Below, one piece after another: positions 25,545 through 31,498 of a stretch of DNA of 39,638 nucleotides. Made by a program: the position numbers and the translations under genes. Each line of letters begins with the position of its first letter. Position 1 is the stretch's first letter. Source of the stretch: a virus; the IMG/VR virus record IMGVR_UViG_3300045988_105477, one strand, 5' to 3'. Below the pieces are notes generated by a model, which worked only from the letters and a program-made list of their open reading frames with translations, was not told the DNA's origin and did no database searches.

Positions 25545-27224
25545 TCACATCACCACCACAACAATGGGGATGCTCACAGTGTTGGCGTCCCCGAAGATCG
25601 TAAATTTGATGCCGCCGTTGTAGGTTTCGGCGTAGCCGTTGGTGATACAGTTGAGATACTGGTTCTCTGCCTCCACAAAGGCGGCGTAGTCCTCGCTTGT
25701 CCCGCTGCCGGTGTAGGCGTGGTCTACCGTGGCCGTGTGGGTGGAGAGCACGCCGGGGATGGCCACGCTCTGGGTCTTGACACCGGTGGTGCTGTCCTCC
25801 GTCCATGTGGTGCCGATAGTAGCGGTGTAGGTTTTCACAGAGGAAATGGCCGGCAGCTGGCTTGCAGGCACCTTGCCGTCCGTGCCAAGAGACGCCGCGC
25901 CAATGTCCGCAGGGGTAAGGGGGTCTGCCCCATTTTTCCCGTGCTGGCTGGCGTGTTTCCCCGCCGCCTTGCCGTCCCACGTGGCTTTCTGTTCGGCCGT
26001 CACGTGGATGTCGCTGTTGCCAATGTGCCCCGGCACGTCTTTCAGCGCCGTGTTGAACGCCGTCTCCGTGCCGGAATACCCGGCTTCCACGGCGGTCTGG
26101 TACGCGCTCTTGCCGTCCGTGCCCTTCACACCTGCGGGACCTCGCGGGCCTTCCGGGCCAATGGCACCCTGCGCACCCTGTACGCCCTGAATGCCCTGCT
26201 CACCCTGCGGACCCTGTGCGCCAGTATCGCCTTTCGGGCCTTGCACACCTTGCTTGCCTTCCGGCCCCTGCGGGCCTTCCGGGCCTTGTAGCTTGCCGAC
26301 GCTGGACCAGTCGTTTTCGATCTCAGACCAGATGTAGCACTCACGGTCTGCTTCCACCATATACATCTTGTCGTTTCCAGCGGGGATGGCGTTCCGCAGC
26401 GCTGCAAGAGTTGGGTAAATATCCTCAATGTAAAGGCTTGTTCCGTCCTTGCCGGGAGCGCCTGCTGGGCCCTGCGCACCAGTGGGTCCCTGTGCGCCTG
26501 CGGGGCCTTGGGGACCTGCGGGGCCCTGAATGCCCTGTGCACCCTGGTCGCCCTTGGGGCCCTGCACACCGGGCACGCCCTGGATACCCTGCGGGCCTCT
26601 TGCGCCCTGTGCGCCCTGCTCGCCCTGTACGCCCTGCGGGCCTTGGGGGCCGCGCACGTTTACGCTCTGAGGAGGGGACGTTACATTTTGCAGGGAAAAG
26701 GACATAACGCCGTTAATGTCCACACTGGGGACGATGGCGGGTCCCACCGGACCCTGTGCGCCGGTGGCTCCGGTATCGCCGGTATCGCCCTTGTCGCCTT
26801 TTTCACCCTTGTCACCCTTTACGCCGGTGACCACGGTCACACCGTTCTGGTCCGTTACCGTGCCGTTGGTGAACTGCATCCGGCTCCGCTGGGGGAGGGC
26901 CTGTCCGTCCGGGCCGATAATCAGGTGACCGGAAGAACCGGTTGCCTGCCAGATTTCGCCGTCCGTGCTGACCTCCAGCACCTTATCGCTGTTCAGACGG
27001 ATGTACTTGAATCCGGCCTCGTTCTGCGGCAGCAGCACCGCCGTTTCCACACCCAGATTTTCCAGCGCCGGGATCAGGGTATCGTTCATGTAAGCCTGAA
27101 GGGCCTTGCCGCCCTCGTCGAACTTGTTTTTCAGCTCGGCGGAAGTCATGCCGCCAACGTCATTGGGTTCATCGTCCAGCGCCGCAATGATCGCCATGTT
27201 TTTGTTGAATTTTTCAATTGCCAC
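25545..27224 (-). CDS. Collagen-like-repeat tail fibre/appendage protein
   Basis: GTG start after GGAGG. Three blocks of G-X-Y triplets ([29 protein letters not shown]; [22 protein letters not shown]...; [31 protein letters not shown]...). Confidence 0.8.
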
Positions 27225-27227
27225 AGG

Positions 27228-28763
27228 TTACACCTCCGTTTTCGGCACTTCGCCTGTCTCGTTGATTTTCCGCTGCAGCTGGCCGTAGCCCGGCCCGCCC
27301 CGTACTTCCAGGGCTTCTTCCTCTGTGGGGGCTGCGCCGCCCTGCGCCTGCTGCATCATCATCTGTTCCTGCTGCATGGTGGCAATCAGGGCTTCTTTAT
27401 CAGTAATCTGGCCGGCAGGCAGTCGTTTCAGATACTCCACGGTGGAAATCTTGCCTTGCATCAGCAGATTGTCCAGCGTCTGCATGGCGGCAATTTCGCT
27501 CCAATAGGAGGCTGCCCCTGCGTCAAGGCCAATGGTAAAGGGGATAGTTTTCAAGGTGGAGAAGTCAAAGGGAACGGCGATTTTCTGCTGGTCGTAGGGG
27601 TTGGAAATTTCCACATACCGTTCGCCGTAATACTCTCCCATAAACTCCATGTAGATGCGCCCCAAGTCCTCAATGCTCTGCAAAAGGCTCTGCTTTGTCA
27701 GTTCCATAGGCGTTGCCGCCGCCCGCTGCAAGGCAATGATGGCGGAGGTGTTGTCCGGGCGGGTATCGCCCAGCGCCACATCCGAGGCTCCAAGGAACTT
27801 CTGAGTGTAGGAAATGGCCAATTCAATAAACTGGCTGATCTGTGGGCTGACCGCCGCCGGGTCAATAATCTTCGCCACGCCCTCCACACTGCCGTTTACC
27901 GGAATGGCCCCGCCCACCCGGTTCGTCCATTTGGCAACCTTGGTGGAATCGTATACGATCTTCGGGTACGCCAGCGTCATCATGGAAATCATGGACAGGG
28001 CGAACAGCTTGTTCACAAAAATTTGGTTGGGAATCAGCCCGGTAATCATGGCCTGCCCGTGATAGCAGTCCTGCACAAAGTCCCACGGCATCCATGTAAT
28101 GGGGTACAGCTTGACCCCCAAGTCCGTGTCGCCCCGGATTTCTGCCTGCCGGGTGCATTCGTAGGCGTGGATAGTGCCGGTTTCCTCGTCCTTCCACAGC
28201 CGGAGGATTACCGTGACTTTCGTCCCGCTGCCGCTCATGGAATCCATATAGGTGCTGCCGCTGTCCTTGTTGTCCGCGTTGATGGCGGTGGGGTCATTGC
28301 CGTACCGTTTCGCCCGCTTCCGGGCTTCTTTCAGCAGCATCCGCCGCTCAATCAGAATATACGGTTGGCTTTGAACGTCCCGGTTGTTGGGATTCCCGAA
28401 CAACACTTGCGTATTCTGCAAGACCTCCGTCCGAATGCAGCCCTTGCTTGTCTGTCCGGTTTCCACGTCTTCATCCCAGTAAGTGTAAGTGCACCCGTCC
28501 CCATCCACGGCGGCGTTCCGGGTAAACTCCCGCAGCACCCCGCCGATGTGATTGAACTCAAAGATGGCGGAAAACTGGTCGTTGAGAATGTCCGCCACCG
28601 TTTCAAGAACCCGGGCAGTCTGCTGCCCGCTGGATGCCATGGGGCGTGCCCACAGCTTCAGGTTATCCGTGGAGATATTGGCAACGGAGAACAGCACCAC
28701 ACGCTTGAGAAAGTTGAATACCGGGGTAGGGAGGCCGTTGCTCTGCACGCCTTCCCACTGCTT
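27228..28763 (-). CDS. Portal protein, exon 2 (joins to 29638..29519)
   Basis: 511 codons starting KQWEGVQSNGLPTPVFNFLKR, with no ATG or RBS of its own. Portal-like features include ALGDTRPDNTSAIIALQRAAATPMELTK. Position is next to TerL and the fibre gene. Confidence 0.65.
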   Translation of the reverse strand, partial: KQWEGVQSNGLPTPVFNFLKRVVLFSVANISTDNLKLWARPMASSGQQTARVLETVADILNDQFSAIFEFNHIGGVLREFTRNAAVDGDGCTYTYWDEDVETGQTSKGCIRTEVLQNTQVLFGNPNNRDVQSQPYILIERRMLLKEARKRAKRYGNDPTAINADNKDSGSTYMDSMSGSGTKVTVILRLWKDEETGTIHAYECTRQAEIRGDTDLGVKLYPITWMPWDFVQDCYHGQAMITGLIPNQIFVNKLFALSMISMMTLAYPKIVYDSTKVAKWTNRVGGAIPVNGSVEGVAKIIDPAAVSPQISQFIELAISYTQKFLGASDVALGDTRPDNTSAIIALQRAAATPMELTKQSLLQSIEDLGRIYMEFMGEYYGERYVEISNPYDQQKIAVPFDFSTLKTIPFTIGLDAGAASYWSEIAAMQTLDNLLMQGKISTVEYLKRLPAGQITDKEALIATMQQEQMMMQQAQGGAAPTEEEALEVRGGPGYGQLQRKINETGEVPKTEV

Positions 28764-29518
28764 CAAGGTTGTTATCGCAGAGGCTTTTTATCCTCTGCTT
28801 CTCATAGTTTCCCATGAGTTCAGCATATCTTTTCACCCGTTCTGGGTGCCCCCGCCTCGTGGTGGCTGATAGCGGTTCACGCCCTGCCACTATGCGTTGC
28901 GGCTGGCTTACATTCCTGTAAGCCTTCACCTCTGATTAGCTTGCGAGACTTATGATTTTTATTTGCCCTCGCTGTGTTTTCACTGCGAGTGATCCACCGG
29001 CAGTTTTCAGGGCAATACCCATCATTGGGGTCAATGCGGTCAATGGTCAGGTCATCCGTGTATCCATGGTGCAGCGCCCACGCCTTGAACGCCTCATAAC
29101 TGTCCCATTCCTCACACACACGAACGCCCTTGCCGCCGTACAAATAGTAGGCTCCACGATTTGCATTGCTGCACCGCTGCCGCATCCCGCTCCATATCGT
29201 GTAAAGCCGCGTTCTGTGGTCATGGCTCTCTCCGTGTAACGTATTCTTTTCCCCCTGTGCTTTGGCCGTTTCTCGACGCAAGCACCCGCAAGAGGATGTA
29301 TTTCCGCTTCGGAGGTTATTGCCGGTGGCAACAACCACCAGCCCACAATCACAGGCGCACTTCCAATATGTCTTGTGGTTTTGCAGGCGGTCGAATCCCA
29401 CAACAACTAAGCGCCCATATCTTTTACCGGTTAAATCAATCATATTCATCCTCCATTAGATGTTTTGTCTCGTTTAGCCTTCCAGCTTTTTTCGGGGGTT
29501 TTACATCGGCAAGCCTTT
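28764..29518 (-). mobile_element. Putative group I intron (755 nt) interrupting the portal gene
   Basis: P1: CAUCGGU (29525-29519) pairs with GCCGAUG (29510-29504), with a U.G pair at the splice site. The intron ends in G (28764). P10: GCUU (29514-29511) pairs with exon-2 AAGC (28763-28760). The exon junction is in frame. An endonuclease-like ORF lies inside. Confidence 0.65.
28877..29449 (-). CDS. Intron-encoded homing-endonuclease-like protein (degenerate HNH_3-type C-terminus)
   Basis: 190 aa. LTGKRYGRLVVV...WKCACDCG...SCGC N-terminal domain. TRLYTIWSGMRQRC...YGGKGVRVCEEW...IDRIDPNDGYCPENCRWITRSEN resembles the HNH_3 block vDHiD....N...NLRw.t..eN with His replaced by Arg. Confidence 0.6.
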   Translation of the reverse strand: MNMIDLTGKRYGRLVVVGFDRLQNHKTYWKCACDCGLVVVATGNNLRSGNTSSCGCLRRETAKAQGEKNTLHGESHDHRTRLYTIWSGMRQRCSNANRGAYYLYGGKGVRVCEEWDSYEAFKAWALHHGYTDDLTIDRIDPNDGYCPENCRWITRSENTARANKNHKSRKLIRGEGLQECKPAATHSGRA

Positions 29519-29638
29519 ACCGATGAAGAAGTTTTCGTTTGTTTCTACACAATCGTACAGGTCTATCCCGGAATTGAAATTCACCCCGGCAGCGTATTCC
29601 TTTGCCACTTGCTCCGGGGTTATGATGCCTTTACTCAT
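29519..29638 (-). CDS. Portal protein, exon 1
   Basis: RBS AGGAGTGGTGTT then ATG, directly after the upstream gene's stop codon. MSKGIITPEQVAKEYAAGVNFNSGIDLYDCVETNENFFIG. Unspliced, the frame stops 5 codons later. Confidence 0.6.
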
Positions 29639-29650
29639 AACACCACTCCT

Positions 29651-31498
29651 TTACTTGACATTTCCTGTGTATCGCAGCTGTACATCCGTCTGCAAAACCG
29701 TTGCCGTTGCGGATGAGGAATCGCTCTTGTAAATCAGCTTGTAGAATGTGGCTTTCTTGACCTTCATCTTCACCCGCCGTACCTGGGGTTTCCGGTTGGT
29801 GCCGAAGGACCAGTGGGCAAAATCCGCATGGGTAAAGGTGCTCAAGCCGGAAGACACGACCTTTTCCGGGTAATCGCTGCGCCGGTTGGTTTCTACCGTC
29901 ACATTCACCCGGGCATTGCTCTCCGGCTGAATGGCCACAAAAATCTGCGGGCTGTACTTCAACACCCAGTCCCGGTCAAAATCCATGGAGCCGGTGGCGG
30001 CGTATGCGTTGATGTTTTCTCCGTCATCATTGCGGTACTGCCGGGAAAAGTGCACCACACTGCCGTCCTCACGGAATCCGTAGGTTTCAAGGCCGATTTC
30101 CTGCATACCCCGGAAATTGATGTTGGTGTAGAGATACCATGCGTCCGCTCCGTAATTGAGAATCAGCGCCTTGTCCTGATAAAGCCACCAGAACTCCTGA
30201 TGATTTTTCCGGTTGAAAATCCGGGTTTCGGCCATATCAAAGCCCTGTAAAGTCACCTCTGCCCGGTTGCTGATGCGCTCTGCGTTCCGCTCATCGGAGG
30301 TGATATTGCCGCCGGTGGATACGGAGCGCCACCGGTAAACCGCTTGGTCATCCAGCGTCAAGGGGTTGTTTTCCAGCAAGTCCACCTGCCCCATGGCCTT
30401 GTTCCCAAACTGCCGGTTCACAGGAGTAATGTAAAAGGCCGCTGTGGTCACGTTGGAAGCGGTGGTCAGGGTGGAATAACTCATGCTCCATGCACTGTCC
30501 TGCTTGAATACCAGCAGCCGCGCATAGTGGCGGATCATGCCGGTGATGGGGGTGTTGGCATCCCCCACTTCCGCTTCATAGAGGTCAGGGAAGTAGTCCG
30601 CCGTAGGTTTGGCCGTTGAGGCGTCAATGCCGGAATAGATGGTCTTGTTGGTGCCGTCTCCGTAGAGGAATACACGGCTGTCCGTCTGCCCGTTGTAAAG
30701 TTCGGCAAACCGCATTCCGGTTACCTCACCCCGCGCTCCTTCCCCGTTGCGGTACACCAGTTCCAGCGTATTGACCCCTGCTGCCGGTGCGGCGGAGAGG
30801 GTGAAGGTTCTCGCTTGCAGATCGGAGGTGTAGGGCTGCTCCGCGTCCCCGATTTTCACGGAAATAATCTCGTCCACATGACTTTCCGGAATCTTAAAGG
30901 TCTTGGCCGTTCCGTCAGGGGAGTAAAGCACCTTCCGTTTTCCCGTCAGCCGGTTCACATTTTCCAGCAGATACCCGCCGCCCTCCGCCGTGGTGGCGTT
31001 CATCACCGTGGGGATATACCCCTCCACATCGGCAAAACTGTTCTCTGCCTTGCCGTCCCAACTCATATATTCGTGTCCGTTCAGCAGATAGACTTTGTTG
31101 CCGAAGCCGAAAAATGTGGTCTGTGCCTGTGTGCATTTGCCCACAACGGAAGCGGCAGCAGATGTCAGGTTGATGTCAAACACAAGCCCACCAAAAGCTG
31201 CCAGCAGCTTTTCTGCACCATTTACAACACCTTCCCAAGACCCGCAATACACCGGGCTTTCCGTTGGGGCGGTGTTCCCCTCCTCGGCGCACCATGCGTC
31301 CCACGTTGTTTTTAGGGTCAGCAGGGTTTTGGTGCCGGGGCGCAGCTGCAAGTGGTTCTCCCGTGTCACCCGGAAGTTTCGCTGCACGCTCATTTCGCCG
31401 TTTTTAATTTTCGTATCGCCGTCCGGGTTCTCATTCAGCCCCAAAAACTGGCGGATCTTCAAGATTTGAATGTCGTTGTTGACGGCAATCCGCGCCAT
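29651..31498 (-). CDS. 615-aa virion structural protein (tail/knob-like by position)
   Basis: Large ORF between TerL and portal. No motif recognised; the call rests on synteny only. Confidence 0.45.
   Translation of the reverse strand: MARIAVNNDIQILKIRQFLGLNENPDGDTKIKNGEMSVQRNFRVTRENHLQLRPGTKTLLTLKTTWDAWCAEEGNTAPTESPVYCGSWEGVVNGAEKLLAAFGGLVFDINLTSAAASVVGKCTQAQTTFFGFGNKVYLLNGHEYMSWDGKAENSFADVEGYIPTVMNATTAEGGGYLLENVNRLTGKRKVLYSPDGTAKTFKIPESHVDEIISVKIGDAEQPYTSDLQARTFTLSAAPAAGVNTLELVYRNGEGARGEVTGMRFAELYNGQTDSRVFLYGDGTNKTIYSGIDASTAKPTADYFPDLYEAEVGDANTPITGMIRHYARLLVFKQDSAWSMSYSTLTTASNVTTAAFYITPVNRQFGNKAMGQVDLLENNPLTLDDQAVYRWRSVSTGGNITSDERNAERISNRAEVTLQGFDMAETRIFNRKNHQEFWWLYQDKALILNYGADAWYLYTNINFRGMQEIGLETYGFREDGSVVHFSRQYRNDDGENINAYAATGSMDFDRDWVLKYSPQIFVAIQPESNARVNVTVETNRRSDYPEKVVSSGLSTFTHADFAHWSFGTNRKPQVRRVKMKVKKATFYKLIYKSDSSSATATVLQTDVQLRYTGNVK

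Follow-up and report, generated by a model that had tools for sequence, protein, structure and literature searches.

How a full-length portal protein could be produced from a gene that appears broken is the question raised by IMG/VR virus record IMGVR_UViG_3300045988_105477, a stretch of 39,638 nucleotides (nt) that is called the window here. In it, the gene for a P22-type portal begins normally, stops after 45 codons, and resumes only farther downstream. Our analysis indicates that positions 29518-28764 on the minus strand (-), the strand of every window feature described below, are very probably a mobile, IA-like phage group I intron that separates codons 40 and 41 of the portal gene in a phage or prophage of gut Oscillospiraceae. 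The biology is ordinary, a mobile group I intron with an endonuclease-like gene being a well-known kind of element, here residing in an essential and highly conserved phage gene. The variant itself is widespread and is missed by the standard Rfam model, and the main value of the locus lies in this very common intron type, whose invisibility to that model results in split-gene annotations.

The interrupted portal gene and its exon junction

The gene for a 615-amino-acid (aa) virion protein ends at 29651, and 12 bases further on, after the Shine-Dalgarno (SD) sequence AAGGAG, a 45-codon open reading frame (ORF) begins at 29638 and extends to 29501. Its first 40 codons, MSKGI...NENFFIG (MSKGIITPEQVAKEYAAGVNFNSGIDLYDCVETNENFFIG), constitute portal exon 1 (29519..29638), and five more codons follow before the stop. 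Downstream, an open frame from 28766 (TTG) to 27228 encodes a P22-type portal minus its N-terminus, the portion from 28763 being portal exon 2 (27228..28763; KQWEGV..., 511 codons plus stop; PF16510, E 1.9e-10), and the match of this 512-aa fragment to phrog_156 begins only at profile position 44. No SD sequence was found 5' of exon 2, where the sole start-like codon is an in-frame TTG, the final three bases of the intron; SD sequences were present before 14 of the 26 long ORFs of the window, flanking structural genes among them. This arrangement matches the original prediction, made by a model from the letters of the window, which had described a gene with a ribosome-binding site behind the 615-aa gene that stops five codons past NENFFIG, and a 511-codon remainder, from 28763 on, with neither ATG nor ribosome-binding site. 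The GC content of the intron was 51%, vs 57% for the whole window.

The same prediction held that ligation would be in frame and would read NENFFIG-KQWEGV. Joining GGU to AAG gives a predicted portal of 551 aa (DNA across 29519/28763: ...TTCTTCATCGGT then AAGCAGTGGGAAGG...), and a search with this ligated protein returned thousands of uninterrupted portals, 551-563 aa long, with ...CVETNENFF[IV]G[KR]QWEGVQSNGLPTP... running straight across the junction. These homologues were 72-97% identical to the query, the best of them 97% over 100% of its length, and the alignment, which had been proposed as a check, placed the exon junction exactly where it had been predicted. The search also returned proteins of 506-519 aa beginning MKQWEGV or MQSNGLP, which are gene-caller products of other interrupted portal copies. 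Among the related loci, designated here by L numbers, the intron-less L002-L004 carry genes for the terminase large subunit (TerL), the 615-aa protein, and a 551-aa portal back to back, and L001 and L005-L008 carry an ORF triplet of 45, 188/189, and 518/519 aa. In DNA alignment, the insert was a clean gap in L002 and L003 (insertion site in L002: ...GAAAATTTCTTCGTAGGCCGGCAGTGGGAG...), and the sequences of L002-L004 aligned on both sides of it. By DNA comparison alone, the boundaries can slide by up to 2 nt, the intron beginning with AAA and exon 2 with AAG; they were set at 29519/29518 and 28764/28763 because the rules of a U.G pair at the 5' splice site and a terminal intron G settle this ambiguity. 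Interrupted copies in which both exon frames remain open were seen again in independent samples, including portals that are only 84% identical, and a megablast search with the portal region found no GenBank phage that matched.

Splice-site pairings and the catalytic core

The last seven nucleotides of exon 1, CAUCGGU (P1 5' strand, 29519..29525), pair with the internal guide sequence GCCGAUG (P1 3' strand, 29504..29510) in a 7-bp helix whose wobble, U29519.G29510, lies at the 5' splice site. Adjacent to the guide, GCUU (29511..29514) pairs as P10 with AAGC, the first four nucleotides of exon 2 (28763-28760), and the intron closes with the tail GAUAACAACCUUG (28764..28776), in which G28764 is the terminal (omega) G. 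All three elements had been proposed beforehand. The P10 pairing and the final G were found as described, the P10 data placing the 3' splice site after G28764, and the 7-bp P1 with its U.G pair also stood, but the two extra A-U pairs assigned to P1 use the same UU as P10, and the loop said to follow them is variable in the family, which means that these pairs are not conserved.

Related introns repeat this pattern with other letters. Their exons end in ...NNNGGU (sometimes GCU), with GCCNNN' located 8-25 nt downstream in the intron, and at least 12 distinct P1 sequences show covariation between the three or four bases that precede GGU and those that follow GCC (e.g., CAUCGGU/GCCGAUG, ACUCGGU/GCCGAGU, UGUCGGU/GCCGACA, CCACGGU/GCCGUGG, CUGCGGU/GCCGCAG, and GGAGGCU/GGCCUCC). 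The bases just 5' of the guide pair with the start of the 3' exon (AUGAUUU/GGAUCAU, GACCAUA/UAUGGU, UAAUAUU/GAUAUUA, CAAUUAU/AUAGUUG), so that P10 changes with the insertion site. The automatic P1 finder was noisy in AT-rich loci, where shuffled controls often reached 4-5 bp, and the P10 permutation test used only cases with a P1 of at least 6 bp ending in GGU or GCU; in these, the mean was 4.65 contiguous bp vs 2.0 for permuted partners, and none of 2,000 permutations reached the observed value. The 3' tail of the family reads GAUAACA, then N3-8, then G.

The original prediction had not found the catalytic core by eye and had reasoned that it would have to overlap the ORF within the intron; the core is present, and it does overlap the 3' end of that ORF. 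Read 5' to 3', it starts with the P3 5' strand CCCCG (29493..29497; partner CGGGG, 28854-28850, with C29498 able to give a sixth pair), the A-rich J3/4 AAAAAAG (29486..29492), the P4 5' strand CUGG (29482..29485; partner UCAG, 28935-28932), and the 5' strands of P5 (GGCU) and P5a (CGAGAC) at 29467..29479, whose partners GUCUCG..AGCU lie at 28949-28938. Beyond the P5a loop come the P5a and P5 3' strands, GUCUCG CA AGCU (28938..28949), the P4 3' strand UCAG (28932..28935) within the Q-like element AAUCAGAGG, and P6 with P6a (28901..28930), in which GGU (28930-28928) pairs with GCC (28903-28901) around the P6a hairpin GGCUUACA-GGAA-UGUAAGCC (28924-28905). J6/7 (GCAAC) and the P7 5' strand GCAUA (28891..28900) form an R-like element, with A28897 pairing to U28822 across the bulged C28896. 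The P7.1 hairpin, GUGGC...GCCAC (28862..28890), stands between P7 and P3', the subgroup IA position, and is followed by the conserved joiner CACGAGG with the P3 3' strand CGGGG (28850..28861), the P8 hairpin CACCC-AGAAC-GGGUG (28834..28848), and J8/7 (AAAAGA) with the P7 3' strand UAUGC plus U (28822..28833), an S-like element comparable to the canonical AAGAUAUAGUC. The P9 hairpin CUCAUGG-GAAA-CUAUGAG (28801..28818), which aligns to the P9 of the Rfam group I model RF00028 in a relative from phage SW13, and the P9.1 hairpin (28777..28798), with its conserved loop AUAAAAAG, complete the structure. In phage IA2 introns, the R and S elements are AACGACUA and AAGAUAUAGUC, as can be seen in the RF00028 consensus; AACGCAUAG and AAGAUAUGC of the window are similar to them.

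The strands of P7 can be written A-[C]-GCAUA and UAUGC-U, and their G-C pair was invariant in 122 of 122 sequences. A bulge beside an invariant G-C is the usual geometry of the guanosine site in group I introns, and P7 is the predicted guanosine-binding site of the window intron. The sixth pair, across the one-base bulge, switches from A-U to G-C in relatives, and a second scan recovered the P7 variants GCGUA/UACGC (at least nine loci), GGGUA/UACCC (L205), and the canonical GACUA/UAGUC (L105). Reading P7 as CAGC (28904-28901) with GCUG (28824-28821) was dropped, given that GCC at 28903-28901 covaries with GGU at 28930-28928 as P6 and GCAUA/UAUGC covaries as P7; the candidate P4 partner CCAGC after P6a was rejected in favor of UCAG before P6, which covaries with CUGG.

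In the Michel and Westhof classification, subgroup IA is marked by extra pairing(s), P7.1/P7.2, between P7 and P3'. One well-supported hairpin, P7.1, occupies this position, a second occurs only as an optional insert in its loop, and P2 is absent in this copy. By its predicted structure, the 755-nt intron (28764..29518), with its ORF within the P5a loop, is IA-like. The conserved 14-nt P7.1 loop of the family, UGAAAAGAUAUAAU (e.g., L001 2875-2947), almost repeats J8/7 and the start of the P7 3' strand (GAAAAGAUAUGC). The loop might take part in a tertiary contact, offer the P7 5' strand another pairing partner, or be left over from a duplication. The window, L024, and L082 share another P7.1 loop, containing an inner hairpin, that is off the family consensus.

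Compensatory change supports these helices already in L001, whose insert is about 70% identical to that of the window. P3, which spans the ORF, is CCCCG/CGGGG in the window vs CCCUG/CAGGG in L001; P5 is GGCU/AGCU vs GCCU/AGGU, P7.1 is GUGGC/GCCAC vs GGGGC/GCCCC, P9 is CUCAUGG/CUAUGAG vs CUUAUGG/CCAUAAG, and the P6a hairpin GGCUUACA/UGUAAGCC is entirely replaced. Across relatives, P4 alternates between CUGG/UCAG and CGGG/UCCG, and P6, GGU/GCC in the window, appears as ACC/GGG, GCG/CGC, or GUG/CAC. In a structural alignment of 52 sequences (members parsed by conserved anchors, with helices in fixed columns and loops N-padded; MAFFT kept 175 columns; three mis-parsed rows were left out, and J3/4 was 6 or 7 nt), 94.7% of cells were paired in the proposed structure, vs 68.9% when the 3' letters were shuffled (0 of 500 shuffles reached the observed value) and 33-41% when partners were slid by 1-3 columns. 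Changes on both sides were seen in 42 of 52 pairs, with a covariation score of 0.666 vs 0.18. All ten helices, the P3/P7 pseudoknot included, were supported, with paired cells amounting to 100% in P3, P4, and P7, 99% in P7.1, 95% in P9 and P9.1, 92% in P5, 90% in P6a and P8, and 83% in P6, and with covarying pairs in P3 (5/5), P7.1 (4/5), P8 (5/5), P9 (6/7), and P9.1 (6/6). P3 was fully paired in 74 of 74 sequences representing 19 strand types (permuted partners: mean 20, maximum 29), and in compact introns its 5' strand had been located solely through the adjacent J3/4-P4 motif. The ORF-deleted window RNA folds at -97.2 kcal/mol, compared with -62 +/- 5 for shuffles (z ~ -7), and its minimum free energy fold reproduces P1, P3, P4, P5/5a, P6a, P8, P9, and P9.1. 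The window copy keeps all helices of the family model intact, with no mismatch in P1, P3, P4, P7, P8, P9, or P9.1.

The intron family, its resident reading frame, and mobility

The window intron belongs to a large family. The pattern AACGCATAG-N35-65-AAAGATATGCTG was found in at least 119 IMG/VR contigs, and a P7.1-loop pattern that left P7 free was found in at least 120. Most members are compact, about 250 nt long, and without an ORF, and others, like the window intron, have an ORF in the P5a loop. They interrupt many different genes: at least six further types of phage have an intron at the same GGU/AAG portal site (L018, L029, the ORF-less L047, L055, L082, and L120), and a TerL site, ...YQG|..QEYDW, is occupied in L020, L070, and L098. 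Several viral contigs (L016, L017, L022, L032, L105, and L009) hold two or three group I introns within 1-3 kb, canonical RF00028-positive introns being mixed with undetected family members; of the two family members in L105, one has the P7 GACUA/UAGUC and the other GCAUA/UAUGC. We tentatively suggest, with rather less than even confidence, that the window intron stands for a structural subclass of its own among phage group I introns, one that is very abundant, lacks a covariance model, and is invisible to RF00028, although splicing was demonstrated long ago for members such as the JCL1032 intron. Its proposed traits are a P7 of GCAUA/UAUGC with A-U or G-C across the bulge, a 4-bp P4, a CCACGAG joiner, a single P7.1 whose loop, UGAAAAGAUAUAAU, mimics J8/7 and the P7 3' strand, the P9.1 loop AUAAAAAG, and a GAUAACA...G tail. 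Were this true, group I introns would be systematically under-counted in Firmicutes phages and gut viromes, and many "split" structural and packaging genes in databases would be annotation artefacts.

The ORF of the window intron (28877..29449, 190 aa, HNH-like) has its own SD sequence, GGAGG, lies in the P5a loop, and ends at a stop codon in the P7.1 loop. It had been described as homing-endonuclease-like, a label that only the PHROG profiles bear out: the PHROG families that it matches are named "HNH endonuclease" (phrog_374, E 1.5e-65; phrog_3377, 8e-38; phrog_2081, 1.7e-30; phrog_953; range 1e-65 to 1e-22), and it has 3,609 unnamed homologues of 175-217 aa. An AlphaFold2 (AF2) model (predicted local distance difference test score, pLDDT, 76) has a C-terminal beta-beta-alpha unit (residues 134-163); two asparagines, N149 and N158, are invariant, and the cysteine clusters CxCxC and SCGC are present. 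The product looks like a His-Me finger with an Arg in place of the usual His and a putative nuclease activity, and it may be an uncharacterised variant of this fold with CxCxC/SCGC zinc sites. The last ~25 codons (28877-28950) coincide with the ribozyme core, from the P5a 3' strand through P7.1. In 30 homologues, the C-terminal ..RK[LV]IRGEG.. is invariant and is encoded by the P5 3' strand, J5/4, the P4 3' strand, and P6, and two alternative C-termini, PAATHSGR.. and QPQRIxGEKI, represent two frames over the same R element. Because these tail codons lie on the P5 3'-P6 segment and the R element, the conservation of the ORF tail is imposed by the RNA.

Comparison of alleles points to mobility. 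Intron-less (L002-L004) and intron-bearing alleles occur in near-identical backbones, and the same portal site carries an ORF-less intron in L047 and an ORF-bearing one in L055. Over most of the ~2.5-kb flanks, the window is 93-100% identical to the intron-less L002 (one 60-nt block, 87%), and from about -180 to +60 nt around the site the identity is 65-82%. In that same interval, the window is 87-100% identical to the intron-bearing L005, whose backbone is mostly 70-88% identical. The comparison shows a co-conversion tract of ~240 nt, as homing driven by an endonuclease should leave behind; it records recent homing between divergent phages and is a clean natural example of homing that shuffles exon sequence between phages only ~75-85% identical. 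The tract takes in the 3' end of the upstream 615-aa gene.

These observations can be assembled into a mechanism. The pre-mRNA would fold so that the internal guide sequence pairs first with the end of exon 1, in P1 with its U29519.G wobble, and next with the start of exon 2, in P10. Around the guanosine-binding P7, the core would comprise P3-P8, the P4-P6 domain, and P7.1; two transesterifications would then excise an intron ending in G28764 and join GGU to AAG, restoring one 551-aa portal. The 190-aa HNH-like protein would be translated from its own SD sequence, its last codons doubling as ribozyme core, and this product, or a related enzyme acting in trans, might cut intron-less portal alleles during co-infection, upon which repair would copy the intron along with exon sequence on either side. 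The exact junction, a structure that is conserved and covaries, membership in the family, and the co-conversion tract are shown by the analysis; that the RNA is catalytic and requires guanosine, and that the protein is a nuclease, we infer.

Weighing the evidence, and known relatives

Several results weigh against a self-splicing, homing group I intron. The search with Rfam, RF00028 included, returned no intron family at the gathering score over the whole window or at E<=10 over 28500-29800, which is the outcome for this model that the original prediction had listed as speaking against it. RF00028 likewise misses the ORF-less L020 and L105. It also misses the terL intron of Lactobacillus delbrueckii phage JCL1032, scores the related TerL intron of SW13 at 50.1 bits, exactly its threshold, and finds other, canonical group I introns in several family loci a few hundred bases away. 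Because an ORF-less member and the JCL1032 intron are missed as well and the SW13 relative stands at the threshold, we read the result as a sensitivity failure, a gap in the seed of the model, rather than an absence of the fold. The ORF had no Pfam HNH match even at E<=10, no PDB sequence match, and no Foldseek match of its AF2 model at E<=0.001, so that on the Pfam, PDB, and fold side the homing-endonuclease description gained nothing; its motif is an invariant D137-R138, DR where HNH_3-type proteins have DH, and the endonuclease may be inactive or atypical. Regarding structure, the alignment was a structure-guided parse, with hairpins anchored at their bases and loops N-padded; the J3/4 register was chosen for five rows, and the P3 5' strands of six ORF-bearing rows were found by complementarity. 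Because the alignment was fitted to the model, its pair counts lean towards that model, and the percentage paired is weaker evidence than the controls (slid partners, shuffled letters) and the count of distinct pair types. The first scan fixed the P7 sequence, so P7 covariation depends on the smaller set from the second scan. Finally, splicing of the portal intron is inferred from DNA.

The last point leaves room for a decayed or host-dependent intron, group I by descent and no longer able to self-splice, which would either inactivate the portal of a defective prophage or depend on a protein cofactor in vivo. Four of nine Bastillevirinae introns were spliced only in infected cells (PMC11878797), and the P7.1 loop of the window departs from the family consensus. 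That same loop variant recurs in L024 and L082, however, and all family helices are intact, both exon frames are open and 97% identical to an uninterrupted portal, and near-identical copies recur in several samples; we regard decay or host dependence as unlikely. The gene might instead be split without splicing, an inserted endonuclease gene separating a 45-aa peptide and a 512-aa fragment (starting at TTG 28766) that assemble non-covalently. Certain phage genes that mobile endonuclease genes have split do function in this way, the insert of each portal copy seen finishes with a codon that could serve as an in-frame start (TTG in the window, ATG in L001, GTG in L018 and L120), and gene callers applied to public data call exactly these fragments. 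Yet introns throughout the family finish in NUG or NCG, also at unrelated insertion sites, where the triplet need not be in frame, and it is this NUG that gene callers take for a start codon. Exon 2 also lacks the SD sequence that more than half of the long window ORFs possess. Moreover, the ~225 nt of the insert outside the ORF form a conserved, covarying RNA that pairs with both exon ends, which a plain endonuclease cassette would not need, and an ORF-less version occupies the same site (L047), making a split gene highly improbable.

Some other intervening element, such as an intein, a group II intron, or a translational bypass, is scarcely conceivable, and nothing beyond the interruption of the gene speaks for it. 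An intein would require a continuous frame, which is broken by the stop five codons past the junction and by an ORF with its own SD sequence and ATG; a group II intron is countered by the lack of a GUGYG start, a domain V match, and a reverse transcriptase; and 755 nt is, to our knowledge, far beyond the length of any known translational hop. A mobile group I intron in the portal gene remains by far the best account of the locus.

Prophages related to the phage occur in Dysosmobacter, Oscillibacter, and other Oscillospiraceae, and some of these have interrupted portals (L237, L238). In L237 (400-2828) and L238 (2501-4929), the portal match spans 2,429 nt for 550 residues, which indicates an interruption; one of these two metagenome-assembled contigs is binned as Oscillibacter and the other as Prevotella, the latter probably a binning error. 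Directly after the window portal, a gene at 25545-27224 (-) encodes 559 aa with long collagen-like Gly-X-Y repeats (its L002 homologue matches PF01391 Collagen), an unusual place for such a gene, with the portal on one side and the remaining head module on the other. A tRNA gene lies at 36585-36653 (-; RF00005, 52.8 bits).

For annotation, the consequence is that gene calls on public metagenomes list a 45-aa ORF, a 188-190-aa ORF, and a truncated portal of 511-519 aa, and the Rfam model raises no flag. Because each scan found at least 120 viral contigs or nearly so (≥119 and ≥120), many genes are affected, and RF00028 is blind to the family, a dedicated covariance model would repair many split-gene annotations, with relatives occurring also in cultured dairy and staphylococcal phages.

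A BLAST search with the 3' core matched cultured phages of S. thermophilus, Staphylococcus, Clostridium, Clostridioides, Lactobacillus, and Oenococcus. The closest in architecture is the terL intron of JCL1032 (GenBank EU409559), where the match falls inside a terL coding sequence annotated as a join; the account given in PMC6669764, citing Riipinen & Alatossava 2004, calls this intron proven group I. It shares many identical core strings with the window: P1 is AACGGU/GCCGUU, P3 is UGCGG/CCGCA, the R-like element reads ..AGAGCAUAG, P7.1 has a similar loop (UGAACAAAUAUAAU) followed by CCACGAG, the S-like element is AAAAUAUAUGCCG, and P9, P9.1 with the loop AUAAAAAG, and the GAUAACA...G tail are all present. 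Unlike the window intron, it resides in terL rather than a portal gene and in a Lactobacillus phage, is of the GCAGAG/GCCG type with respect to the P7 extension pair, lacks an ORF in P5, and differs in the details of P4-P6.

[quoted passage not shown] The 3' module of the window intron (J8/7, P7 3' strand, P9, P9.1, and tail) is 83-88% identical over ~70 nt to the TerL introns of 2972, 858, and SW13; it lies at ~2.3 kb in phages 2972 and 858, and in SW13 it falls between two coding sequences both named terminase large subunit. Introns of the SW13/2972 type also share the GGU|AAA-type 5' splice site and a GCCC guide, and because the SW13 relative reaches RF00028 at 50.1 bits, the window family is linked to canonical group I introns. 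They differ in their canonical P7, GACUA/UAGUC, their larger P7.1/P7.2 region, the absence of an ORF, and the two TerL coding sequences recorded in GenBank.

Group I introns in phage packaging and structural genes have been widely reported (PMC11878797, PMC7886860, PMC3706429); neither an insertion at NENFFIG|KQWEG of P22-type portals nor this host range was found in a literature search that was not exhaustive. With the phage IA2 introns (T4 td, nrdB, and nrdD; the SPO1 DNA polymerase intron with I-HmuI; Twort; Bastillevirinae, PMC11878797), the window intron shares the order P1-P3-P4-P5-P6-P7-P7.x-P3'-P8-P7'-P9, the extra hairpin between P7 and P3', R and S elements resembling AACGACUA and AAGAUAUAGUC, an ORF in a peripheral loop, and insertion at a highly conserved codon stretch; moreover, phrog_2081, matched by its ORF, carries HmuI-like annotations (PMC11878797). 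It departs from them in its P7 of GCAUA/UAUGC, its 4-bp P4, its single P7.1 with a conserved 14-nt loop, the absence of P2, an ORF in L5a rather than in P6 or P9, and its RF00028-negative status.

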